The notes beneath the pieces were generated by a model. The model saw nothing but the letters and a program-made list of their open reading frames with translations. It searched no databases and was not told where the DNA came from. Both the position numbers and the translations under genes were made by a program. This document shows, piece after piece, positions 1,386 through 62,503 of a DNA stretch of 64,000 nucleotides. The stretch's first letter is position 1; every line of letters starts with the position of its first letter. The stretch is from Clostridia bacterium (lineage in GTDB: Bacteria; Bacillota; Clostridia; Christensenellales; DTU072): contig JAFTZC010000013.1 of assembly GCA_017461065.1 (NCBI GenBank), forward strand, positions 3,808-67,807, given 5' to 3'.

Positions 1386-4118
1386 TTATGCCTTTCTAAT
1401 AAGAAACCAAGCTGCGTATGCAAGTGCTGATACCGCACCGATATAGAATAAAATCGATTGGTGCGTTGCCTTTTCGGCTTGTTGATTTATTTGGGTTGCC
1501 GTTTGGTTATATGCGTTTATCTCTTGAACGAGAGTTGCGTAGGCTTCACTTGAAGCATCCTTTTCGCTGTCGCTTAGCTCGGCGTATGCTTCAAGAGCTT
1601 CACCTATCGCGTTCCATTTTGCTTCCAAGCCGTTTGCACTTTCAACTGCTTCAACGAGTGCGGCGAATGAAGCTACGACTTCGTCGTTAGCTTGCGCTCT
1701 TTCTTCTGTATGGGAGCAGTCGGCACATACCCTTTGCTCCATATCGTTTTCAATGGGCGTCCACTCGCCAAAAGCGTGTGGGATGGTTGGGACTTCTCTC
1801 GTTTCTACGTCCGAGCAAGCGGGACATACTCTTTGCTCGCTTCCAACCGTCTTGCAAGTTGGCTCGGTTACCACGCTCCACGCCCCGTAGCTGTGTCCAA
1901 GGGAAGGGATACTATCGCCCACTTCGGAGTGGTTGCAGCCCTCTCTTACGCAAGCGTAAGTTCCTTCATAGCCGTCGGCAGTACAAGTGGGAGCAATGTA
2001 GCTGTTCTCCACTGCTTCCAAGTCGTGTCCTAAGCGATTTACTTCTCGAGTGATAGTATTTCCACAAGATGAGCATAGGCTCTCTTCCACGCCGTCGGTA
2101 GTACAAGTAGGCGCCGTGGTTTGGCTCCAAGTGCCGTAGCTATGCTCAAGCGCAGGGATAACTTCGACGTCCACTATCTCGCCACACTCGGTACATTCGG
2201 TGTGTCTGCTACCTGCTCCCGAGCAAGTAGCTTTGCTGTCTACAATCCACTCGCCTGCAGTATGTGCGTGCGTCGAGCCGTATACGATGGTGATTTCTTC
2301 AACGTATACGACGCCCGTCGATTCGTAATTGATAGCAAAATATTGGTCGGTCGTGCCAATATTAAGGGTGCCCCCCGAAGATGACGAAGTCAAAGTGCCT
2401 CGTTTGGTACCCGTACTTACTTTGCCACTACCCGTGCCATAAGCCGTCGAAGACGTATAAACGCTCCAAGGCTTTTCAGCCGTCGATTTGATTGTGATTG
2501 ACACTATACCACCACTAAATGCAGTCGTATTGAATATATATTGAGCAGTTTTGCTACTATTCATTTGAATTGAGCCCGTTTGTCCCGGGTACATAAAGCC
2601 CTGACCACTCATTCCGTCCGCGCTCCAAGTACACCAATTATACGCACCGCTTCCGCTAAAACTCTCACGAGTTATAGTTAACGTTTTGGTGGTGGCTTGC
2701 TTTACGGTAATGCCACTAATCGTCTTTTCGGCGGTGCCGTACTTACAAATAACGGTGGTGCTACCTTGGCTTAAAGCTTCCGCCCTTGACGTGCCGTCAA
2801 GCCAAGAGCAATCTTCGTTTGGGATAGTTGCCGTCGAGCCGTCGGAGTAGGTTGCCGTTACCGTGATACCCGTTGGGTTAAAGGTATCGCCTGCGCTATA
2901 GGTAGTTTTGACGGGTGCTCCCGTAAGCGCAATCGAGCTAACTGCCTTAACCGAAATAGTAGCGGTGGCTTTAACGGAGCTGTTTGCAGTGCTCGTTGCG
3001 GTAATAGTTGCACTACCTGCTCCTACTGCAGTAACTACGCCACCCTCAACGGTTGCAACACTCGTATTAGACGAAGTCCAATTTAGAGTGCTGGTTGCTC
3101 CTGCCTGATAAACTTCGGCTGATAGTCTGTATGTTTCGCCTTTAACAAGGGAAGCAGTAGACGGAGAAATTACTACTTCAGTGGGCTCGATGGTGCTGTC
3201 TCCACCTACGTCACCGTCAAGGTAGCTACCGTAAGTTTCCACTACGTTTTGGAGTTCGTCGCTATAGCTTTCACCGTCGTGACAATAAATCATTTCGGCG
3301 TATTCGGGGTGGTCAATAAAGGGATTTCGGTTACCTTGAACGGCGTAAACGGCTTCGTTCCTTGCTTTTTCAGCTTCCGTTGGAGGCTCTTCGACGTGCC
3401 ACTTCATGAGGTCTTCAATATCGCCTATAGTCTTGTTGTTGCCCTTGCCCAAAACGAAGGTAAGATTATATTTATCTCCCCAACGAGTTTGAACGTACAT
3501 AAGTATACGTGCCGTTGCCCCACGGTAGCCAACGCCGGGATAAAATACTGAGTCTTGTTGGTAACAAAGATTAGCGTAGGAAGTAGAGCCGTTTTCCTTG
3601 ACGATATTAGCCGTAGTTTGCGGTACTTCGCCAAAGCTATTGTTGCTACGGGTGGAGTTCAATTGACTATTGGTTGGACGAAGGTGGTGAGCATCCGAGC
3701 CGGCTTCGCTCTCGGCCGGGAAGGCACTACCTGAGTTCTTTGGCCAAACGTGTTCACGATTGGTGCCAGTGCTAAAGCTACCATTAAAAGAAACGGACGT
3801 GCCGGTATAAAACCAAAGAATATTACCACTCTTGTTGGGGTCGGCGTCACTCTCGTCAAAGATGTTACGAAGCCCATCATAAGTAGGGTTATAATCGTGG
3901 GTAGAAGTTATTAGCGTTGCAAGCTCCGTCCTAAACGAATCACCCGTGAGATTTTCGTTGAGACCTGCGTAATAGCTGTCGTAGGAAGCTGCTTCGACAG
4001 ACTCTACGACTTGCTGAGCGGGAGCAAATACTCCAACCCAACAACCCACCATACTCATCAAGATACATAATGGTAGGATAAGTGCAACGAGATTGAATTT
4101 TCTTTTGGACTTAAACAT
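1386..4118 (-). CDS. cell-anchored multidomain extracellular nuclease with an endonuclease I (EndA/Bsn-family) domain, Ig-like repeats, a beta domain, Cys-rich repeats and a C-terminal TM helix
   Basis: Endonuclease I motifs are present: NREHVWPKNSG, DAHHLRPTNSQLNSTRSNNSFGE and GNRNPFIDHPEYAE. There are Big_2-like segments (GSATITATS..VKATATISVK). About five H-x2-G-x-W..TC..G..C-x2-C modules fall at nt ~1692-2270. The protein has an N-terminal signal and a C-terminal hydrophobic helix (ILFYIGAVSALAYAAWFLI). Confidence 0.85.
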   Translation of the reverse strand: MFKSKRKFNLVALILPLCILMSMVGCWVGVFAPAQQVVESVEAASYDSYYAGLNENLTGDSFRTELATLITSTHDYNPTYDGLRNIFDESDADPNKSGNILWFYTGTSVSFNGSFSTGTNREHVWPKNSGSAFPAESEAGSDAHHLRPTNSQLNSTRSNNSFGEVPQTTANIVKENGSTSYANLCYQQDSVFYPGVGYRGATARILMYVQTRWGDKYNLTFVLGKGNNKTIGDIEDLMKWHVEEPPTEAEKARNEAVYAVQGNRNPFIDHPEYAEMIYCHDGESYSDELQNVVETYGSYLDGDVGGDSTIEPTEVVISPSTASLVKGETYRLSAEVYQAGATSTLNWTSSNTSVATVEGGVVTAVGAGSATITATSTANSSVKATATISVKAVSSIALTGAPVKTTYSAGDTFNPTGITVTATYSDGSTATIPNEDCSWLDGTSRAEALSQGSTTVICKYGTAEKTISGITVKQATTKTLTITRESFSGSGAYNWCTWSADGMSGQGFMYPGQTGSIQMNSSKTAQYIFNTTAFSGGIVSITIKSTAEKPWSVYTSSTAYGTGSGKVSTGTKRGTLTSSSSGGTLNIGTTDQYFAINYESTGVVYVEEITIVYGSTHAHTAGEWIVDSKATCSGAGSRHTECTECGEIVDVEVIPALEHSYGTWSQTTAPTCTTDGVEESLCSSCGNTITREVNRLGHDLEAVENSYIAPTCTADGYEGTYACVREGCNHSEVGDSIPSLGHSYGAWSVVTEPTCKTVGSEQRVCPACSDVETREVPTIPHAFGEWTPIENDMEQRVCADCSHTEERAQANDEVVASFAALVEAVESANGLEAKWNAIGEALEAYAELSDSEKDASSEAYATLVQEINAYNQTATQINQQAEKATHQSILFYIGAVSALAYAAWFLIRKA

Positions 4119-4761
4119 AACGACTCCAACGCTTGCTTGGGCGTGCCTAAGCGAGCGTATTGTATAGATAGCTTAATCATATAACAAAAACTTAAGTTAG
4201 TCAACGCGTGCGAGCAAAAAAACAAATTATGACAATTTTTATATTCACAGAAATTGCGAACTTTCCCCTATTTTTAGTGCAATTTTAAATCAAATTATAA
4301 GGCGTAAATTCAAATGAAAAATCAAACGAATTATTCCTTAAAATCTCGTTGCGTGTTTTTAGTGAATTTTACCGATTTAGGTTTCTTAGCTTCCGCTTTT
4401 AATTACCCAAGTTTCTATTTTTGAAAAATTTGCAAAAGGCAAAAATCGACCATTTTTCGGCGTTGTTTGCAGAGCTGATTTTAGGGCAAATTTTGATTGA
4501 AATCCGGCATCTCTTATCCCATCCCAAGCGAGTGATTTTGACAAATATTTCGGCCGAATTTTAGGTCTAAACGGCTGATTTGCTAACTTTTTGGGTTTTA
4601 CTAAAATTTACCATATTATTTAATATATATTTTTAAAATGTGGGTTGATTATTTTGTAGAAATATGTTAACATTCTTTAGGACGCCGTCTATTTATAAAT
4701 ATAAATAATAATAAAACGGCGCAAAAGCGCGTTCTTTAGAGGCGCAGTACGTGGAGAAAAA

Positions 4762-5943
4762 ATGATATTCGACATTCAAAAAGCAAGTATTACTAAAAGA
4801 TTGGTTGCGTTTATATTAGACGCCATCCTTTTTGCGGTGCTTGCAGTTGGATTTGCCTGGTTAATCGGTCTTGCTTGCGACTACGACACACATCTTAATG
4901 CAAGCGTATCCACACAAGAAGCCTATACCACCTATTATAAGCGTGCTTACGGCGTAGATTACTCCAAGACATACGAAGAACTCACCGAAAGCGAAAAGGC
5001 AATTTGGGACACGTACTCGGAGCAATTTTCAAACGCCGTCACCTACGACGAAGCAGTCAAAATCACCATTGAACAACTACTATCCTACCGAACTAAATAT
5101 CTTGGCTCACACGGCGTAGACCTACTCGCAACCGACACCACGTACGATAATTATACGACCGAGCAAAAAGCGGCTTGGCTGAGCGCATACGAAGCCTGTC
5201 AAAACGAACTAAAAGCTAAGTACGGCAAAAAGGCCTTCCTAATGAAACCTATCCGCTACGTGCAATCCTATCAAGAAGATTTTAGCGTAGACCTAACTCG
5301 CAACTCGGACGACGTGCCGAAGAGCGAACTCAAAAACTGGCTCAAAGCCTACGACAAGTGCGACAAGGTTTTAGCAACCGACCTATCTTATAACGCAAGG
5401 ATGATGAGAATTCTTGCATTCACTCTTTTAATGATTTCACTCGGCATACTTTTATCTATGCTGATTTTAGAATTTATCGTTCCCCTACTATTCAAAAACG
5501 GCCAAACCGTTGGCAAAAAGGTATTCGGCATCGCCGTTATACATCAAAACGGAGTGCGCGTCAACACAATTACTATGTTTATAAGGACTTTCCTTGGAAA
5601 ATACGCGGTGGAAACTATGGTCCCCGTGCTTTTGGTGTTGATGATGTTTACTTCCAACGCGCTGATATCAGTAATAGTAATTGCCCTATTGTTCATTTTT
5701 GAAATAGTGCTATTCGTATGGAACAAGGACTATCGTCCCTTTATCCACGACGTATTTGCAAAGACGGTAACCGTAGACCTTGCAAGTCAAATGATATTTG
5801 AAAACGAAGCCGAGATGGTTGCGTTTAGACAAAGCACCTACGCCGAAGGCTCGGGAGACGCGCTTTCAGATACACTATACGGCACGTCAAATCCCCTTGC
5901 CAACTCCTTTGTCGAAGTAGACAAAAAGGACGAGAACAAATAA
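4762..5943 (+). CDS. RDD-family-like integral membrane protein with a soluble insert
   Basis: An N-terminal TM helix is followed by a ~180-aa hydrophilic insert and then TM helices with GQTVGKKVFGIAVI, typical of RDD-domain proteins. GGAG lies 6 nt upstream of the ATG. Confidence 0.55.
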   Translation: MIFDIQKASITKRLVAFILDAILFAVLAVGFAWLIGLACDYDTHLNASVSTQEAYTTYYKRAYGVDYSKTYEELTESEKAIWDTYSEQFSNAVTYDEAVKITIEQLLSYRTKYLGSHGVDLLATDTTYDNYTTEQKAAWLSAYEACQNELKAKYGKKAFLMKPIRYVQSYQEDFSVDLTRNSDDVPKSELKNWLKAYDKCDKVLATDLSYNARMMRILAFTLLMISLGILLSMLILEFIVPLLFKNGQTVGKKVFGIAVIHQNGVRVNTITMFIRTFLGKYAVETMVPVLLVLMMFTSNALISVIVIALLFIFEIVLFVWNKDYRPFIHDVFAKTVTVDLASQMIFENEAEMVAFRQSTYAEGSGDALSDTLYGTSNPLANSFVEVDKKDENK

Positions 5944-18575: not shown

Positions 18576-18971
18576 ATGGTAGAAGTCGTTGCAGCACTAA
18601 TTTGGGATAAGGATAAGTTTTTGATTTGTAAGCGCCCTGCAAACAAGGCGCGCGCACTTCTTTGGGAGTTCGTAGGTGGCAAGGTGGAAAAAGGCGAAAG
18701 TAAGGAGCAAGCCCTTGTGCGTGAGTGCAAGGAAGAACTTGATATTACTTTGTCCGTAGGTGACGTATTCACCGAAGTAACCCACGTTTATCCCGATATT
18801 ACGGTGCACCTTACCCTTTTTAACGCAACTATCCTTGACGGCACGCCCACTCTAATCGAGCACGCCGACCTAAAGTGGATACTCCCAAGCGAAATCCCCG
18901 AATACGAGTTTTGCCCTGCTGACAAAGAGATTTTGGAGCTTTTGCAAAGGCGAAATCGCATTTGCAAGTGA
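18576..18971 (+). CDS. NUDIX hydrolase, MutT/8-oxo-dGTP diphosphatase-like
   Basis: It has a Nudix box (GGKVEKGESKEQALVRECKEELDI). I placed the start at ATG 18576 because AAGGAG sits at 18564-18569. The ORF-track start at 18510 lies inside a heptamer repeat. Confidence 0.85.
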   Translation: MVEVVAALIWDKDKFLICKRPANKARALLWEFVGGKVEKGESKEQALVRECKEELDITLSVGDVFTEVTHVYPDITVHLTLFNATILDGTPTLIEHADLKWILPSEIPEYEFCPADKEILELLQRRNRICK

Positions 18972-19023
18972 AGTTACTACGCAGTGAAATCATTCCTAAT
19001 TCCTCACTCCTAATTCTTCATTC

Positions 19024-19206
19024 CCTAAAATGCGTTAGTTTGGATGAAAGTCGACGGAAATAAAAGCTGTTCTCACTTAAAAACGAGCAAGTTTAGATGA
19101 AGAGCGACGCAAAAGATAAAAACCCATTGGGTTGCTGTAGTAGACCTACTGCGCCCGATGGGTTTTTGTGTTTTGCTATGCTATTCGCTAAAATCGCTCG
19201 TTTTTA
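19024..19206. repeat. inverted-repeat-bounded terminator element, copy A (with a duplicated left arm)
   Basis: The left arms are at 19024-50 and 19076-104. The core is GTTGCTGTAGTAGACCTACTGCGC inside the hairpin AAAAACCCATTGGG...CCCGATGGGTTTTT. The right arm CTATTCGCTAAAATCGCTCGTTTTTA ends in the stop codon of the GH2 gene. Confidence 0.7.
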
Positions 19207-23364: not shown

Positions 23365-25035
23365 ATGACTGGTCTTGATATCTTCTATGCAATACTCGCT
23401 GCCCTATCCGGTCTTGGCGTATTTATTTTCGGTATGAAAATACTTGGCGACAATCTCGAAGCCGTTGCAGGCAATCGCATCAAGCAAATGTTCGGATTTA
23501 TCGATAAATCTCGCTTCGTGGGCGTAGGTATCGGTGCCGGCGTTACGGCCGTTATCCAAAGTTCGTCGGCAGTTACCGTTATGCTCATAGGCTTCGTTAA
23601 CGCAGGACTTATGACGCTACCCCAAGCAACGAGCGTAGTATTCGGCGCAAATATCGGCACCACTATCACCGCCCAAATCGTAGCACTCGGCTTCGGTGGT
23701 ATAAAAGACGTCCAAATCACCGTTATTTTTGCAGCTTGCGCGGGTATCGGCGCATTTATGCTACTCTTTGCCAAAAAGGATATTCTCAAGAAAATCGGCT
23801 CGATAGTATGTGGCTTGGGTATGATTTTCGTAGGACTCCAAGTTATGGGCGACAGTATGGAAAGCTTCAAAGAAGCTCCCGTAATCGTAAACGCTCTCCA
23901 AAGTGTAAGCAACCCCCTACTTCTCGTCGTTCTCGGTGCAGTTATCACGGGCATCATCCAAAGCTCAAGCGCGATGACGGGTTTGGTTATTACGATGAGT
24001 GCTGCAGGTATTATCACCTTCCCCCAAGCAATGTACGTAGTTATCGGCTCAAATATCGGCACCTGCGTAACGGGACTCCTTTGCTGCATAGGTACCACCA
24101 CCAACGCTAAGCGCGTAGCCGTCGTACATCTTCTATTCAACGTTATCGGCAGCACACTATTTATGATTACCGATATATTTGCAAAGTACGCCAACCTACT
24201 AATGAGCTGGTTTGATACCGCGCAAATGCAAATTGCAATGCTACACACTATGTTCAACGTAGCAACCACGATAGTTCTTCTCCCCTTCATCAAACCACTC
24301 GTAAAGCTCGTAACGCTCATAGTGCCCGAACGCAAAGGCGAAGCCGAGCGCGACGACGTACCACGCCTATACTTCCTAAACGAGCAAATCCTAAGCTCGC
24401 CACCCCTTGCCGTACAAAGCATCAAGAGAGAAATTCTCAATATGTGCACCCTTGCTAAATCCAACTTTGACCTTGCTCTCGACGCTATCACCAAGGTCGA
24501 CGTATCCAAAAAGGACGAGCAAAAAATCACCGAAGCAAAACTCAATTATCTACATAAAGAGATAACCAAATATCTTGTTAAGGTAAATCAATTAGATATT
24601 AATGCACTTGACGCCGAGTTGCTTGGAACGGCCCACCACACCGTTAGCGACCTTGAGCGTATCGGTGACTACTCCGAAAATATTTTCGAGTACGCAGAGC
24701 GCCTAAAGGAAGACAGACTCAGCTTCTCCGAAGACAGCTTAGAAGAAGTTGCACGTCTAAGAGATGCACTCAACACCCTATTTGAGATGACCTACAAGAT
24801 TTACGACGAAGAACTACCCGAGCTTATACCCACCCTATACACCTACGAGCAAATCACCGACGATATGAAGGTGCTAATGAGCGAAAAGCACGTCGAAAGA
24901 CTTAACCAAGGCGTCTGCAACCCCGAAACAGGCGCGTTGTATCTAAGCCTTGCAAACGACTGCGAGCGTATCGCCGACCACCTTACCAGCATCGCAAACG
25001 CAACCAAGAGCTTTGCTAAGCCGAAGAAGAAGTAA
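23365..25035 (+). CDS. Na+/phosphate cotransporter family protein with C-terminal PhoU-like repeats
   Basis: There are duplicated Na/Pi cotransporter motifs (AVIQSSSAVTVMLIGF and GIIQSSSAMTGLVI). The C-terminal helical region has two ...DLERIGDYSENI / ...DCERIADHLTSI PhoU-type motifs. Confidence 0.85.
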   Translation: MTGLDIFYAILAALSGLGVFIFGMKILGDNLEAVAGNRIKQMFGFIDKSRFVGVGIGAGVTAVIQSSSAVTVMLIGFVNAGLMTLPQATSVVFGANIGTTITAQIVALGFGGIKDVQITVIFAACAGIGAFMLLFAKKDILKKIGSIVCGLGMIFVGLQVMGDSMESFKEAPVIVNALQSVSNPLLLVVLGAVITGIIQSSSAMTGLVITMSAAGIITFPQAMYVVIGSNIGTCVTGLLCCIGTTTNAKRVAVVHLLFNVIGSTLFMITDIFAKYANLLMSWFDTAQMQIAMLHTMFNVATTIVLLPFIKPLVKLVTLIVPERKGEAERDDVPRLYFLNEQILSSPPLAVQSIKREILNMCTLAKSNFDLALDAITKVDVSKKDEQKITEAKLNYLHKEITKYLVKVNQLDINALDAELLGTAHHTVSDLERIGDYSENIFEYAERLKEDRLSFSEDSLEEVARLRDALNTLFEMTYKIYDEELPELIPTLYTYEQITDDMKVLMSEKHVERLNQGVCNPETGALYLSLANDCERIADHLTSIANATKSFAKPKKK

Positions 25036-25107
25036 GTTTGCAAAGATTGCAATTAACGACCGTAGGTCAATTCATTTTAATCTCTAATACAAAAAGCATA
25101 CTCCGCA

Positions 25108-25370
25108 TAGCGTGATGTCCTTAACGGACAAATCACGCTAACTAAGTTTGCCCTTTGGGCAAGTGAAGTTATCTTCGATAGTGAAGTTCACTTCGTGAGT
25201 GAAGTTTCGCCTGACGGCGAAGTGTTGGGCAAACTTAACTTCACTTGTGCGTAGCACAAACTTCACTGCGTAGCAACTTCACTTTTGCGATAGCAAAAAC
25301 TTCACTAACAGAAAAAGAGAGGACATTACGGATTAAACCGTTTTGTTCTCTCTTTCTGCTTGTAATATGG
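25108..25370. repeat. word-hairpin array 1: AGTGAAGTT x3, then its complement AACTTCACT x4
   Basis: Forward words start at 25162, 25180 and 25198. Reverse words start at 25237, 25259, 25275 and 25298. Each pair is separated by a different small hairpin (ATC-TTC-GAT, CAC-TTC-GTG, TCGCC-TGAC-GGCGA, TGTGC-GTA-GCACA, GC-GTA-GC, TTTGC-GATA-GCAAA). Longer hairpins flank the array at 25108-40 and ~25309-70. Confidence 0.8.
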
Positions 25371-25874
25371 GTTTGGGCTTAGCCCGTAATGCATTTGACT
25401 AGTCAAATGCGATGCTTGCACTTTTGTCAAGTTGCAAATTCTCTGCTAAGAATCTCACCCTATAGTAGTGTGCTTTTTTATTGCTCTATTCCTTTCTATG
25501 AGTATGATAACACGGGGTATCGCCAAAAGCAATAGATAATTCAAAACTATTTTTGGGGTGTAACCGAATTGTTACAAGTTGCGTTACAGCGACAAAAAGC
25601 AAGGTCTGTCTGTGGATAACTCATTCGTTTTGTCAACAGCGATTGTAGATAACCCGTGATTTTTTTAGTTCAAAATCAAGCCCAAAATTGACCCCAAAAA
25701 TATGCTCAAAACTCCCTTCAAATTTGACTCCAAAAATCGGCTCAACTCTTACTTATGATTTATCTCCCTAAAAGAAGAAATAAGAAACAAGAACATAAGA
25801 TTCAAAGAAATAAAAAATAAATAACGCGCGCTATGCGACCCTGTTGATATGTGGAAAAGTGGGTTGCTTACGCA

Positions 25875-26003
25875 AATGATGAATGCTGAATGAGGAATGA
25901 GGAGTGGCTTTGCTACGTTTCTCTTCGCAAACAAGGAATCCTTGTGAATGGAACGAAGTGGAATGAAGCCCACTCCTAATTCTTCACTCCTAATTCTTCA
26001 TTC
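25875..26003. repeat. degenerate CATTCCT-type heptamer tracts arranged as an imperfect inverted pair
   Basis: AATGATGAATGCTGAATGAGGAATGAGGAGTG (25875-906) faces CACTCCTAATTCTTCACTCCTAATTCTTCATTC (25971-6003). Related tracts occur at 18991-19023, 33317-48, 45209-40 (inverted), 48999-49031 and 62340-74. Confidence 0.75.
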
Positions 26004-26004
26004 T

Positions 26005-26134
26005 CTAAAAACGCGATTATTTAGATGAAAGACGAAGGAAAAGAAAAAACCCATTAGGTTGCTGTACTTGGCGTACTGCGCCCCGACGGGTTTTCTTATT
26101 TTTCAAGGTATTTCGCTAAAGAATCGCGTTTTTA
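26005..26134. repeat. inverted-repeat-bounded terminator element, copy B
   Basis: The left arm is CTAAAAACGCGATTATTTAGATGAAAG. The core GTTGCTGTACTTGGCGTACTGCGC is at 26059-82. The right arm GTATTTCGCTAAAGAATCGCGTTTTTA (26108-34) ends in a TTA that is the complement of the MMPL gene stop. Confidence 0.75.
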
Positions 26135-33213: not shown

Positions 33214-33363
33214 GTCGCGTCTATCATCTATTTATTTACGTTTTATGAGTATAGTTATTTTATTGATTTAATAATTTAACTTTTATCCTTGTGAGTGAAG
33301 CGAAGCGTAATGAAGTCACTCCTCATTCTTCATTCATCATTCCTCATTATGCGTAAGGCCAGC

Positions 33364-45393: not shown

Positions 45394-45457
45394 AAAAAAG
45401 CCCACTCTCCGTGGGCTTTTTGTGTTTGTGAAGTATTTCGCTAAAGAATCGCTTTAA
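45394..45457. repeat. simple terminator plus a lone right-arm motif
   Basis: AAAAAAGCCCAC-TCTCC-GTGGGCTTTTT is followed by GTATTTCGCTAAAGAATCGCTTTAA, which ends in the stop codon of the GH2 gene. No left arm and no conserved core are present. Confidence 0.65.
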
Positions 45458-47208
45458 TATTGGAGTTTTGCGTTAAGCTCCCTAATCTTTTCAAGGTCCA
45501 CCTTGACAACCTTGCGGTCGTAGGTGAGTAGTCCGTTGATTTCGTCTTCTACGTCGGTGAGCTGGGTGTATACGGTTGCCGACAAGCCTTTATCTATGAT
45601 TGGTAGAATTTGATTTTCAAATAGCTTGTGGTATGCCTTGTCAAAGCTCTCCAATGAATCGTAAGCTTTGTAGCCGAAGCTCTTTGAAAGGTTGAATACG
45701 TGACCTTCTACGGGAACCGAGTAACCACCAAACTCACTTAGGATTACCGTTCTGCCCAAACTATCTTCGCTTGGGATGGTTACGGGACGGAAGTAAATGT
45801 GTAGGGATAGGAAGTCGCCGCCGCCTTGGTCAATCCAACCGCTTGCGTGGTCGATGGGACGAGTGGTATCGTACTTCTTGATGAACTCAACTGCCTTTAG
45901 GGAATCGAATTGTCCCCAGCTTTCGTTGAATGGAACCCATAGTGCAAGGGATACCGTGTTGTATAGCGTCTTCATAGTACGCTCGGCGTCAACGTAGTAT
46001 TCGTCACGGCAAACCTTGTCTTGTCTGCCACAGAGTGAGTACCAGCTGTCCTTTGCCTTGATGTGGAATAGTCCAAGCGCGCCGTTGAATAGTTTGTTTG
46101 CGCCCATACCGCCGTTGATGAAGTCTTGCCATACGAGTACGCCAAGCCTATCACAGTGATAGTACCAACGTAGTGGCTCAATCTTAATATGCTTACGGAG
46201 CATATTGAAGCCCATCTTCTTGGTGATTTCGACGTCGTAAATCATAGCTTCGTCGCTTGGTGGGGTATACATACCGTCCGACCAATAACCTTGGTCGAGC
46301 AGACCGTTGTGGAAGTATGGCTTGTTGTTTAGCATAATACGTGGCTTGCCCTTGTCGTCCTTGCCTGCGGAATATTTACGCATACCAAAATATGAGCCTA
46401 CCTTGTCGTCGCCACAGCTTACTTCAAGGTCGTATAGCTTGGGGTTTTCGGGGCTCCATAGCTCGTAGCCACTTAGCTTCAAGGTTGCTTCGCCGCTTGC
46501 GAGTTCGCCTTCAGCGATAACCACCTCGCCGTCCTTTGCTACTACCTTGCCACCGCTGAGCTCGCCACTAACGTTTACCTTTACGTTCAAGGTGTCGCTG
46601 TCGATATCGGGAGTAATTTGAATGGAATCAATATAATTTACGGGCACGCTCTCCATCCATACCGTTTGCCATATACCAGATTGGGGAGTATAGAATATGC
46701 CACCACGCTTAATTTTTTGCTTGCCCTTTGCTTGTCCGTAGGTGTCGGATGGGTCGGTAACTTCAAGGGTAAGTTCGTTTTCGCCGTCCACGAGAGCGTC
46801 GGTAACGTCAGCGTAGAATGGGAAATATCCACCCCTATGCGTAATAACTTCCTTGCCGTTTACCATAACCTTTGCGATATAATCTACTGCGCCGAAGTGT
46901 AGTAGCACTTTGCCTACGTTGAAGCCTTCGGGAAGGGTAAACGTGCGCTTATAGTATAGGACGTCACTTGGCGTAACCATTTTTTCGACGCCGCTAAGAA
47001 TACATTCGGGCGAGAATGGCACTACGATTTTGCCTTGATACTCTTTTAGCTCATCCTTTTTGGGGAGTATTGCATAATCCCATTCGCCGTTAAGGTTGAT
47101 ATAGGAATCTCTAACCATTTGTGGGCGTGGATACTCGGGTAGCGGACAGCTCTTGTCAAGCTTTTCACCAAACGGAGTCAGTAGTTTGTCAAATCGTTCT
47201 TTTGCCAT
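45454..47208 (-). CDS. glycoside hydrolase family 2
   Basis: It has the GH2 N-terminal sugar-binding domain and TIM barrel with FNESWGQ and LSEFGG. AAGGAG RBS is present. Confidence 0.8.
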   Translation of the reverse strand: MAKERFDKLLTPFGEKLDKSCPLPEYPRPQMVRDSYINLNGEWDYAILPKKDELKEYQGKIVVPFSPECILSGVEKMVTPSDVLYYKRTFTLPEGFNVGKVLLHFGAVDYIAKVMVNGKEVITHRGGYFPFYADVTDALVDGENELTLEVTDPSDTYGQAKGKQKIKRGGIFYTPQSGIWQTVWMESVPVNYIDSIQITPDIDSDTLNVKVNVSGELSGGKVVAKDGEVVIAEGELASGEATLKLSGYELWSPENPKLYDLEVSCGDDKVGSYFGMRKYSAGKDDKGKPRIMLNNKPYFHNGLLDQGYWSDGMYTPPSDEAMIYDVEITKKMGFNMLRKHIKIEPLRWYYHCDRLGVLVWQDFINGGMGANKLFNGALGLFHIKAKDSWYSLCGRQDKVCRDEYYVDAERTMKTLYNTVSLALWVPFNESWGQFDSLKAVEFIKKYDTTRPIDHASGWIDQGGGDFLSLHIYFRPVTIPSEDSLGRTVILSEFGGYSVPVEGHVFNLSKSFGYKAYDSLESFDKAYHKLFENQILPIIDKGLSATVYTQLTDVEDEINGLLTYDRKVVKVDLEKIRELNAKLQY

Positions 47209-48820: not shown

Positions 48821-48850
48821 AAAAACGGCGCGAAAAAATCGCGCCTTTTT
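48821..48850 (+). terminator. rho-independent terminator
   Basis: AAAAACGGCGCGA-AAAAA-TCGCGCCTTTTT lies directly after the stop codon. Confidence 0.7.
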
Positions 48851-48862
48851 ATAATGCGAAAT

Positions 48863-48955
48863 GCGTGGCTTACGCAAGTGAAGTTGCTTCGCAGTGAAGT
48901 AACTTCGTAGTGAAGTTTGAGCTTAGCTCAAGTGAAGTTTTTAGCTGAAGCTAAA
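48863..48955. repeat. word-hairpin array 2: AGTGAAGTT x4 (forward only)
   Basis: Words start at 48877, 48893, 48909 and 48931. The hairpins are GCGT-GGCTT-ACGC, GC-TTC-GC, AC-TTC-GT, TGAGC-TTA-GCTCA and TTTAGC-TGAA-GCTAAA. Confidence 0.8.
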
Positions 48956-49032
48956 AGTTGTGGATTTATAAATTATAACCTTGTTTGCGTAGCAAAGTCA
49001 TTCAACATTCCTCACTCCTAATTCTTCACTTT

Positions 49033-49160
49033 CTAAAAACGCGATTATTTAGATGAAGAGCGCGAAAAAGGCGAATTTCCGAAAGGTTGCTGTACTTGAC
49101 GTACTGCGCCTTGAGAAAATTCGCCTTTGACAATGCTATTCGCTAAAGAATCGCGTTTTA
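49033..49160. repeat. inverted-repeat-bounded terminator element, copy E
   Basis: It has the same arms as copy B and the core GTTGCTGTACTTGACGTACTGCGC at 49086-109. The right arm ends in the stop codon of the ABC ATPase gene. Confidence 0.75.
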
Positions 49161-58858: not shown

Positions 58859-58953
58859 ACCACAACTTTTAGCTTTAGATAAAAACTTCACTTGAGCTTT
58901 GCTCAAACTTCACTACAAAGTAACTTCACTTTTTCGTTAGAAAAACTTCACTC
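58859..58953. repeat. word-hairpin array 3: AACTTCACT x4 (inverted paralog of array 2)
   Basis: Words start at 58884, 58906, 58922 and 58945. The hairpins are TGAGC-TTT-GCTCA, AC-AAA-GT and TTTTC-GTTA-GAAAA. The array begins CCACAACTTTTAGC, the reverse complement of the end of array 2 (GCTAAAAGTTGTGG). Confidence 0.8.
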
Positions 58954-58963
58954 CCGTATGCCG

Positions 58964-59010
58964 ATTTCGCATTTCGCACTTCGCATTTCGCACTTCGCAT
59001 TTCGCATTTC
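58964..59010. repeat. heptamer microsatellite (ATTTCGC/ACTTCGC, complement of GCGAAAT/GCGAAGT), ~6 units
   Basis: The sequence is GATTTCGCATTTCGCACTTCGCATTTCGCACTTCGCATTTCGCATTTCC. Shorter (ATGCGAA)2-3 tracts occur at 18509-26, 45189-201, 48853-65, 56181-212 and 62269-85. Confidence 0.85.
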
Positions 59011-62270: not shown

Positions 62271-62374
62271 TGCGAAATGCGAAATTTGCTTCGTTACACT
62301 TTGTTCCACTCACAAGGATTCCTTATTTGCGTAGCAAAGTCACTCCTCATTCCTCACTCCTAATTCTTCATTCC

Positions 62375-62503
62375 CTAAAAACGCGATTATTTAGATGAAA
62401 GACGAAGGAAAAGAAAAAACCCGAGGGGTTGCTGTACTTATCGTACTGCGCCCCGACGGGTTTCTTGTTTTTCAAAGTATTTCGCTAAAGAATCGTGTTT
62501 TTA
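62375..62503. repeat. inverted-repeat-bounded terminator element, copy F
   Basis: It has the same arms as copy B and the core GTTGCTGTACTTATCGTACTGCGC at 62429-52. The right arm ends in the stop codon of the 62501-63448 gene. Confidence 0.75.

Follow-up and report, generated by a model that had tools for sequence, protein, structure and literature searches.

The array and the unit that carries it

The stretch examined here, hereafter the window, comprises 64,000 nt from a Clostridia bacterium. Between its convergent genes for a sodium/phosphate (Na/Pi) cotransporter and an MMPL protein lies a word-hairpin array, in which a 9-nt repeat alternates with palindromic spacers of 7–14 nt. On the + strand the word AGTGAAGTT occurs exactly three times (starts 25162, 25180 and 25198), followed by four copies of its complement, AACTTCACT (starts 25237, 25259, 25275 and 25298). 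Six stem-loops stand between the words (ATCTTCGAT, CACTTCGTG, TCGCCTGACGGCGA, TGTGCGTAGCACA, GCGTAGC and TTTGCGATAGCAAA), and hairpins at 25108–25140, 25147–25161 and 25309–25358 cap the array. An earlier note on this DNA had placed the seven words exactly and had listed the same stem-loops and caps, all of which are present. It had also proposed testing the word for enrichment; with both strands counted, the window holds 16 copies of AGTGAAGTT, whereas dinucleotide-preserving shuffles of the 64-kb sequence hold 0.59 on average and never more than 3. Further arrays of the same word lie at 48877–48960 (+) and 58860–58952 (−), with a remnant at 18967, all intergenic. The note missed these arrays, as well as a degenerate first word (F0, followed by the hairpin h0; Table 1), and the feature is longer than it stated, the conserved unit running from 25108 to 25461.

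Three words with gaps of 4–24 nt were sought in one genome of each GTDB species, and at least 120 stretches matched. Among the matches listed, the carriers are nearly all metagenome-assembled genomes (MAGs) of gut or rumen Clostridia (Oscillospiraceae, Christensenellaceae, Acutalibacteraceae and 'Scatosoma'), and a + array is very often followed 25–55 nt later by a − array. The architecture is constant: a variable 5′ hairpin, AACTAAGTTYGCC-loop-GGC, three forward modules, a centre ending in GCRAACTT, and three or four reverse modules. As the word pattern reads alike on both strands, 60 elements were oriented by their asymmetric 5′ motif, AAGTTYGCC. Their exact word counts (forward, reverse) are mostly (3,3), (3,4) or (3,2), and the centre abuts the first reverse word in 43 of the 60. 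In the window, the h0 arm AAGTTTGCCC is complementary to this centre (GGGCAAACTT, 25227–25236).

Window positions 25107–25463 align at 84–91% identity with L036, L075, L097, L098, L113, L073, L121, L115, L083 and L079, and the flanks of these copies, from at least ten Clostridia MAG loci, cannot be aligned. Two of them (L073 and L075) lie in one MAG. Two metagenome contigs, L001 and L002, are near-identical to the window with an identical array and were therefore uninformative. Homologues of the window Na/Pi cotransporter are MAG proteins labelled 'Clostridia bacterium'. It is well supported that the segment 25108–25461 represents a single copy of a non-coding unit of ~355 nt that recurs at dispersed sites, with a core of the Gut-1 type described below; being short, non-coding, multi-copy and at unrelated genomic sites, it resembles a miniature inverted-repeat transposable element (MITE). 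Within this gene-less subfamily the 5′ hairpin shows compensatory variants (GTGAT..ATCAC and GTGTT..AACAC). The tail, 25359–25461, is present only in copies of the subfamily and both its hairpins show compensatory changes, while the last ~20 nt of the unit form an imperfect inverted repeat of its 5′ end.

The unit sits in the loop of a bidirectional terminator between the two convergent genes. The flanks of each copy are complementary to one another and unrelated in sequence between copies, with an A-run before the unit and a T-run after it. True flank pairs fold at a mean of −21.1 kcal/mol, against −10.5 ± 3.6 for mismatched pairs, a comparison confined to the five full-length copies with both flanks. 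In three syntenic relatives (L123, L124 and L126; Na/Pi protein 90, 87 and 84% identical) the order GH5 cellulase, Na/Pi, convergent MMPL is kept, and the gap between the convergent genes measures 64–68 nt and holds one plain bidirectional terminator, against 1096 nt in the window. Together, these comparisons show that the unit interrupts a terminator that is intact in relatives; since their stems differ from that of the window, they give the ancestral state rather than the exact empty site. A relative with a 99% identical Na/Pi protein (L215, 2170–2245) diverges 12 nt after the stop codon and holds a different array there, with the word CATGAATTG, so the insertion site varies between close strains. 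The earlier note had proposed comparing this intergenic region among related strains; what the comparison returned was a plain terminator in three of them and another array in the fourth.

The L215 contig ends within its array, so that such arrays probably break short-read assemblies; contigs end at arrays in L018 and others as well. The Na/Pi gene of the window ends in AAGTAAGTTTGC and contains an 80% identical direct repeat (23602–23661 and 24004–24063). This is probably an ordinary internal duplication of the Na_Pi_cotrans family, as the protein has two Na_Pi_cotrans matches.

Might the array be neutral debris of slippage or inverted duplication, functionless and immobile? Slippage can yield short tandem units, and degenerate, hairpin-less word runs lie nearby (18980–19030 and 25865–26010). 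This origin is strongly disfavoured and, to our minds, exceedingly improbable, as it leaves unexplained the 84–91% identity over 355 nt across species-level MAGs with unrelated flanks. It equally leaves unexplained the hundreds of independent compensatory stem changes, the polarised loops, and the fixed position of arrays beside one gene family across at least eight word types, to which we turn below.

Gut-1 membership and fold

At gathering thresholds, Rfam matched nothing in the whole window. In a scan by E-value instead, the full Gut-1 model (RF01706, positions 1–77 of 77) aligned to 25139–25210 (+) with 46.4 bits (E = 5.7e-8), 3.6 bits under the curated cutoff of 50. Relatives score above that cutoff: L020, which has the word AGTGAAGTT, with 52 and 51 bits, L130 with 72.9 and 69.4, and L133 with 60.5. 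The model is laid out as three hairpins parted by GUGAAAU, and the window likewise presents three covarying hairpins, h0, h1 and h2, parted by the GUGAAAU-like (A)GUGAAGUU. These results show the window array to be a Gut-1-type element, a variant member of a catalogued motif and not something categorically new. The earlier note, which could not match the pattern to any of the architectures that it named (Gut-1 not among them), is overtaken on this point.

Gut-1 was reported in 2010 by Weinberg et al. from human-gut metagenomes only, with 43 sequences; it was classed as RNA on covariation, termed a small RNA (sRNA), and nothing further was said of it (PMC2864571). The Stockholm file of that report (PMC2864571) carries complementary words (AUAUCAC) and hairpins downstream of the modelled part. 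Because the seeds hold them, the forward/reverse architecture is a trait of the Gut-1 family that the Rfam model misses. Gut-1 and the window element share three consecutive small, variable hairpins with a conserved word (GUGAAAU, or GUGAUAU in some seeds), and both come from gut-microbiome sequences of uncultured organisms. They differ in that model and paper cover the forward half alone and give no function, host or gene link, whereas the window element, with the word AGUGAAGUU, is bipartite, with a reverse half, and stands in an apparently mobile 355-nt unit within a terminator.

The window arrays at 48.9 kb and 58.9 kb had no Rfam match even at E ≤ 0.01, no tRNA or tmRNA is present, and a full-text literature search with the word returned primer coincidences only. 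Identity with attC sites, CRISPR, repetitive extragenic palindromes (REP) and bacterial interspersed mosaic elements (BIME), or T-boxes was rejected on anatomy, in agreement with the earlier note for all of these but attC, which it had not named.

Structure is conserved while sequence varies, as the note had described. In a set of 152 distinct spacers paired end to end, Watson-Crick matches make up 552 of 688 positions (80%); shuffling lowers the share to 28%. Taken alone, the two short forward slots show 87/91 and 92/101 Watson-Crick positions, built from 33 and 34 different stems. Region 25085–25490 folds far more stably than its shuffles on either strand (z = −9.5 and −9.7). RNAalifold on 12 unit copies returned a ladder of forward words paired with reverse words (F1:R3, F2:R2, F3:R1) with side hairpins, and found 14 pairs with double compensatory changes, all in the hairpins, the word pairs being invariant in this subfamily. 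The ladder that the earlier note had foreseen is thus returned, but it is probably not an essential form, since relatives have forward-only or reverse-only arrays. Kissing-loop pairing of the two sides was tried and rejected: the window loops TTC, TTC and TGAC are not complementary to GTA, GTA and GATA.

This covariation, on which Gut-1 itself was classed, together with the stable folds and the ladder, is what a structured RNA would leave behind. The array would then be transcribed and act as RNA, in the 3′ untranslated region of the Na/Pi mRNA here, and elsewhere in the leader of a PF05635 mRNA or as a free Gut-1 sRNA. Proposed roles are a stacked rod of paired forward and reverse words that stabilises the 3′ end in the manner of REP, titration of an RNA-binding protein, possibly the four-helix-bundle protein itself by way of autoregulation, and cutting by RNase III as in intervening sequences. 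A further argument for an RNA is that the window terminator would presumably form only after the whole unit has been transcribed.

In the array stems, G·U pairs are no commoner than A·C (24 and 23), where an RNA would favour the former. The loops tell the same story: on the strand reading AACTTCACT, the loop is GNA or GNNA in 75 of 197 hairpins and TNC in 4. On the top strand the forward half holds 24 TNC, 3 TNNC and 0 GNA loops, and the reverse half 22 GNA/GNNA and 0 TNC. Loop polarity thus follows the word and not the strand, in arrays with other words as well, which makes the two halves true mirror images. A single RNA would have loops of two kinds, UNC in one half and GNA in the other. Given the balance of G·U and A·C and the mirrored loops, both strands appear equally constrained.

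Some reverse-side spacers, GTGAGCGAAAGCGAAC and GTAAGCGTAAGCGAAC (L017, L020, L067, L119), recur and are not simple hairpins. Their pairing includes tandem G·A/A·G mismatches (GTGAGC/GCGAAC), of the kind usual where G·A pairs are sheared.

PF05635 genes beside the arrays

In six loci (L067, L017, L054, L020, L047 and L059) an open reading frame (ORF) of ~116 amino acids, preceded by a Shine-Dalgarno (SD) sequence, begins ~45 nt past the last reverse word. Its product belongs to PF05635, '23S rRNA-intervening sequence protein' (E = 1e-22 to 3e-27), and to TIGR02436, 'four helix bundle protein'; the closest solved structure by sequence is 2RLD. Two more loci, L119 and L026, have a PF05635 gene behind the same architecture with other words (CATGAATTG, ATATCGA).

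The association also holds in reverse. Among 38 non-redundant metagenome loci chosen by protein similarity alone, complementary 7-mer forward/reverse arrays were found in 26 upstream regions, ending 12–76 nt before the start codon; among the controls, 2 of 33 downstream regions had such arrays and none of 760 shuffles did. By eye, almost all of the 12 negatives have arrays as well (forward-only, reverse-only, hairpin-less or missed by the rule), including the L140 group, where one Gut-1 seed matches almost exactly the region upstream of the PF05635 gene. Among relatives on viral contigs, arrays stand upstream of the gene in 3–4 of 5. PF05635 is the sole recurrent partner of the arrays; the other clusters recurring near 120 of them are housekeeping only (ABC ATPases, a RumA-like methyltransferase, surface proteins). 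Hence, the word-hairpin module family is shown to be a habitual neighbour of PF05635 genes, in either orientation. The earlier note had seen neither this link, nor the extent of the unit, nor its position in a terminator.

The family of these four-helix-bundle proteins takes in Avd, the accessory protein of diversity-generating retroelements. PF05635 resembles Avd (PMC10053308), and its genes occur inserted within cas operons (PMC3936711). The four-helix-bundle protein matched nothing in PHROGs or PADLOC, and a search of the phage GenBank collection matched only two unannotated contigs. In L138 (800–1750) the arrays are very large. Eight forward modules of ATGAATT precede the PF05635 gene, and modules of AATTCAT + GGAGCGAAGCGAG run on both sides; the gene stands between forward and reverse array, in the 'centre' of the element.

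At least eight different but related words stand upstream of PF05635 genes, and share the theme RTGAWNT (GTGAAAT, GTGATAT, ATGAAAT, ATGATAT, GTGAAGT, TGAATTG, GCTAAAT). The word tracks protein similarity: in 29 of 38 cases a protein and its nearest neighbour have their word in common. In the commonest class, with ~50-nt spacing, a sigma-70-like promoter lies between array and gene, its −35 element abutting the last reverse word and followed after 17 nt by TATAAT (TTGACA-17-TATAAT-like).

Such a layout recalls an operator or upstream activating array in duplex DNA, in which the words would bind a transcription factor, possibly the four-helix-bundle protein as its own regulator, and control the adjacent promoter, with orphan arrays as decayed or decoy copies. 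Regularly spaced direct and inverted word repeats are typical of operator arrays, and the occurrence in either orientation, like the agreement of word and protein, would suit one. Binding to duplex DNA leaves the palindromic spacers, the covarying stems and the polarised G(N)NA loops without explanation, and proteins 85–87% identical can adjoin different words. Among the matches listed, moreover, orphan copies far outnumber gene-linked ones, and those are 84–91% conserved and stand in terminators, not promoters. We regard an operator as unlikely.

The promoter also bears on transcription. In the most common subtype a terminator precedes the array and a promoter follows it, with no obvious transcript covering the array, and forward-only and reverse-only arrays accompany the same gene family in either orientation. 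Strand symmetry and promoter position raise doubt, as far as sequence can, that Gut-1 acts as a non-coding RNA. A structured RNA is the main rival reading, and we give it a real but minority chance. The RNA that the earlier note had listed among its options is weakened accordingly by the mirrored loops, the equal G·U and A·C counts and the promoter that parts array and gene in many relatives.

The unit in the window lacks a PF05635 gene, and its copy is therefore an orphan. In L119 and L020, second, gene-less copies join the array to a motif otherwise found after the gene's stop codon. This motif, ATGTGAGTTTTGAGCAA..CTCGAAAATACAATTTACAGCAGTTTAGTA, opens with a start-stop (ATGTGA) and is joined directly to the array in such copies (Table 1). 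Two resemblances are suggestive only: the 5′ arm of the long hairpin in the window looks like the SD and start region of PF05635 genes (L067: AAAGAGGACATTATGAAAGA), at 15 of 20 positions and the same offset from the last word, and the window-type AGAGAGGACATTACGG looks like AAAGAGGACATTATGAAAG of L067.

Stem-loops, mobility and comparable elements

Elements lie next to stem-loops. A stable hairpin (free energy ≤ −8) ends at most 4 nt from the first base of 84% of 56 distinct elements, against 19% of random positions. The abutting hairpins are long and all different, and many are bidirectional terminators. Several elements, with different words, stand at the 3′ end of a RumA-like methyltransferase gene (Table 1). 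The hairpin there consists of the last codons (..GHVESVVCL..) and their reverse complement, which encodes a variable C-terminal tail, the stop being the TAA within AACTAAGTT.

One parallel is with the intervening sequences (IVSs) of 23S rRNA in Leptospira and Coxiella. These are viewed as selfish insertions that occupy rRNA hairpin loops and have complementary termini, and their ORF was once proposed as a mobility factor (PMC4990558). As in those, the window unit is inserted in the loop of a host hairpin, has self-complementary ends and would let the host helix form; the same four-helix-bundle gene family, the selfish repute and the sporadic distribution recur as well. Here the host hairpin is a terminator and not rRNA helix 9, 25 or 45, and the window copy lies between protein-coding genes without a PF05635 ORF, which gene-bearing relatives have. 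Word-hairpin arrays are not described in classical IVSs, whose sequences were not compared here.

Targets of diversity-generating retroelements (DGRs) need a DNA hairpin or cruciform with variable GC stems and conserved 5′-GRNA loops, and Avd is essential for DGR function (PMC3240598). Free stems, a G..A loop on one strand (GNA/GNNA here) and an Avd-family protein are common to both. A DGR has a single GC-rich hairpin of 7–10 bp, whereas the arrays have three to eight very short hairpins plus a word. No reverse transcriptase, template or variable repeat, or initiation of mutagenic homing (IMH) site was noticed in the loci, the reverse transcriptase and the two repeats not having been searched for systematically.

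Group IIC introns, retroelements that target terminators, are likewise placed directly 3′ of terminator-like stem-loops of any sequence, as in the 84% above. The elements here have neither ribozyme nor intron-encoded protein, and some copies lie inside the loop. With REP, BIME, REPIN and MITE repeats they share being short, non-coding, multi-copy, intergenic, often between convergent genes, hairpin-forming and in mirror pairs. In REP the palindrome sequence is conserved and RAYT is the partner, whereas only the 7–9-nt word is conserved here, with stems that differ per module, and no RAYT-like ORF recurs near the arrays at 120 loci. MITEs are set apart by what is missing here, a recurrent transposase, target-site duplications and strong terminal inverted repeats, and CRISPR by repeats of ~23–50 nt with non-palindromic unique spacers.

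We see about an even chance that the window array is a mobile orphan derived from a selfish, IVS-type element directed at DNA stem-loops, and that it represents a copy of that element's cis-acting module. The word-hairpin modules would be cis-acting sites readable on either DNA strand, each recognised as a hairpin, extruded or single-stranded, that has a G(N)NA loop and adjoins a short word. The recognising protein would be the Avd-like one, acting in trans on orphan copies, and module plus gene would make up a minimal selfish 'IVS'-type element. Such an element would settle at DNA stem-loops, either immediately 3′ of the hairpin or within its loop. Its self-complementary halves would let the insert fold back in a read-through transcript while the separated terminator arms still pair, and because they could still pair, insertion is proposed to be nearly harmless. 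Among the roles that the earlier note had offered, 'non-autonomous mobile element' and 'protein-binding array' are the best supported here.

Several results weigh against the selfish DNA element. The exact empty site, with identical terminator arms and no insert, was not found among relatives. No recurrent transposase, integrase or reverse transcriptase lies near the arrays at 120 loci, no consistent target-site duplication was seen at the junctions of eight copies, and the terminal inverted repeat is weak (11–13 of 18 positions match inverted). Neither the unit nor the 64-kb window holds a PF05635 ORF, and a supplier in trans is unproven for this genome. Nor does 23S rRNA flank any of the fetched PF05635 genes across 214 loci, so the link to IVSs depends on protein homology and analogy. 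Three features fit an RNA role. UUCG-type loops (GCCTTCGGC, ATCCTTCGGAT), which are typical of RNA, occur in the array beside GNRA-like ones. On the + strand, G·U exceeds A·C in two parts of the 355-nt unit, its tail and its SD-like hairpin. The AGTGAAGTT class has its SD directly after the last word, so there the array must be in the mRNA. Finally, what the array does we infer throughout, and that too counts against the reading.

The wider proposition is more doubtful, and we offer it tentatively: Gut-1-type arrays may be the cis DNA sites of unrecognised minimal mobile elements whose sole protein is an Avd-like PF05635 pentamer, homing to DNA stem-loops such as terminators, gene-end hairpins and rRNA helices. 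If true, it would explain the origin of 23S rRNA intervening sequences, as well as the solitary 'four helix bundle protein' genes and orphan arrays scattered through gut Clostridia, phages and other bacteria. Gut-1 has been an orphan since 2010, known from gut metagenomes only, with no function, host or neighbour assigned to it. Proteins of the PF05635/TIGR02436 kind abound, and none but Avd, in DGRs, has a known role; how intervening sequences enter rRNA hairpins has been a question since the 1990s. The adjacency of arrays and PF05635 genes offers one testable handle on all three, and orphan arrays appear to move and to settle at or within stem-loops. In the searchable literature, outside which most subscription journals lie, we found no description of the bipartite mirror architecture, the PF05635 association, the mobile gene-less 355-nt derivative or stem-loop targeting. 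In practice, the elements may also serve as strain-variable markers in gut Clostridia.

Table 1. Features of the unit and its surroundings in the window, flank pairs of unit copies, and positions of related features in other loci
Feature	Position	Strand	Remark
5′ arm of split host bidirectional terminator (AAAAAGCATACT)	25091..25102	+	target DNA, outside unit; complementary to 25467–25478, paired in minimum-free-energy fold
Unit 5′ hairpin TAGCGTGATGTCC-TTAAC-GGACAAATCACGCTA	25108..25140	+	conserved in gene-less subfamily
Degenerate first word F0 (ACTAAGTT, 25141) and hairpin h0 (TTGCCC-TTT-GGGCAA)	25141..25161	+	
Forward half: F1–F3 with hairpins h1 (25171–79), h2 (25189–97), h3 (25207–20)	25162..25220	+	
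Centre (AGTGTTGGGCAAACTT)	25221..25236	+	pivot of the two mirror halves
Reverse half: R1–R4 with hairpins h4 (25246–58), h5 (25268–74), h6 (25284–97)	25237..25306	+	loops GTA, GTA, GATA
Long SD-like hairpin CAGAAAAAGAGAGGACA...TGTTCTCTCTTTCTG	25307..25358	+	
Tail: hairpins GGGC-TTA-GCCC (25375–85) and GCATTTGAC-TA-GTCAAATGC (25391–410)	25359..25461	+	end ..ATCTCACCCT
3′ arm of split host terminator with T-run (AGTGTGCTTTTTT)	25467..25479	+	
Flank pair, window			AAAAAGCATACT / AGTGTGCTTTTTT
Flank pair, L036			AACGCGAGGGAA / TTCCCTCGCGTT
Flank pair, L075			TGCCGAGAGGA / TCCTCTCGGCA
Flank pair, L073			AAGGCGAAAGCACTT / AAGTGCTTTCGCCTT
Elements at 3′ ends of RumA-like genes	L017 ~4180–4230; L020 ~460–520 and ~3060–3118; L047; L119; L169		
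ATGTGAGTTTTGAGCAA..CTCGAAAATACAATTTACAGCAGTTTAGTA motif	L054 ~5600–5700 (−); L026 ~1900–2010 (−); L119 ~1090–1162; L020 ~3260–3300		

The window holds further repeats. At 48826–48960 a forward-only array follows directly on an intact terminator (CGGCGCG-AAAAAAT-CGCGCC-TTTTT) and a small hairpin. Its four words, of which one reads AGTGAAGTA, come with the hairpins GCTTCGC, ACTTCGT, TGAGCTTAGCTCA and TTTAGCTGAAGCTAAA, and at its end stands AAGTTGTGG, a second type of centre that L006 and L011 share. The four-word array at 58860–58952 (−) lies in a divergent region, where its neighbours are a gene for an EcoRI-type methylase and a small helix-turn-helix gene. Close by, at 58965–59010, is a tandem 7-mer run (GCGAAAT/GCGAAGT), and the same run precedes the CATGAATTG array of L215.

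A second dispersed repeat family, of ~180 nt, occurs at 25951–26131, 48979–49159 and 62321–62501, and in part at 45409–45461 and 33306–33356. Its copies read AAAACGCGATT ... GTTGCTGTACTTGRCGTACTGCGCC ... CGCTAAAGAATCGCGTTTT, follow word runs of the TCCTAATTCTTCA type and are found in L100 too; Rfam gave no significant match to the family. L128 and L129 hold four to five tandem copies of a similarly built repeat of ~150 nt in the orthologous intergenic region. Lastly, hairpin-less word arrays at 25865–25910, 25960–26010 and 18980–19030 run from GAATGAGGA-type forward words to TCCTAATTC-type reverse words. Similar repeats, of AGGAGTTAG, precede the PF05635 gene in L131, and similar arrays follow tRNA genes in L191, L207 and L208; the hairpin-less arrays of the window may be a hairpin-free variant of the same module.

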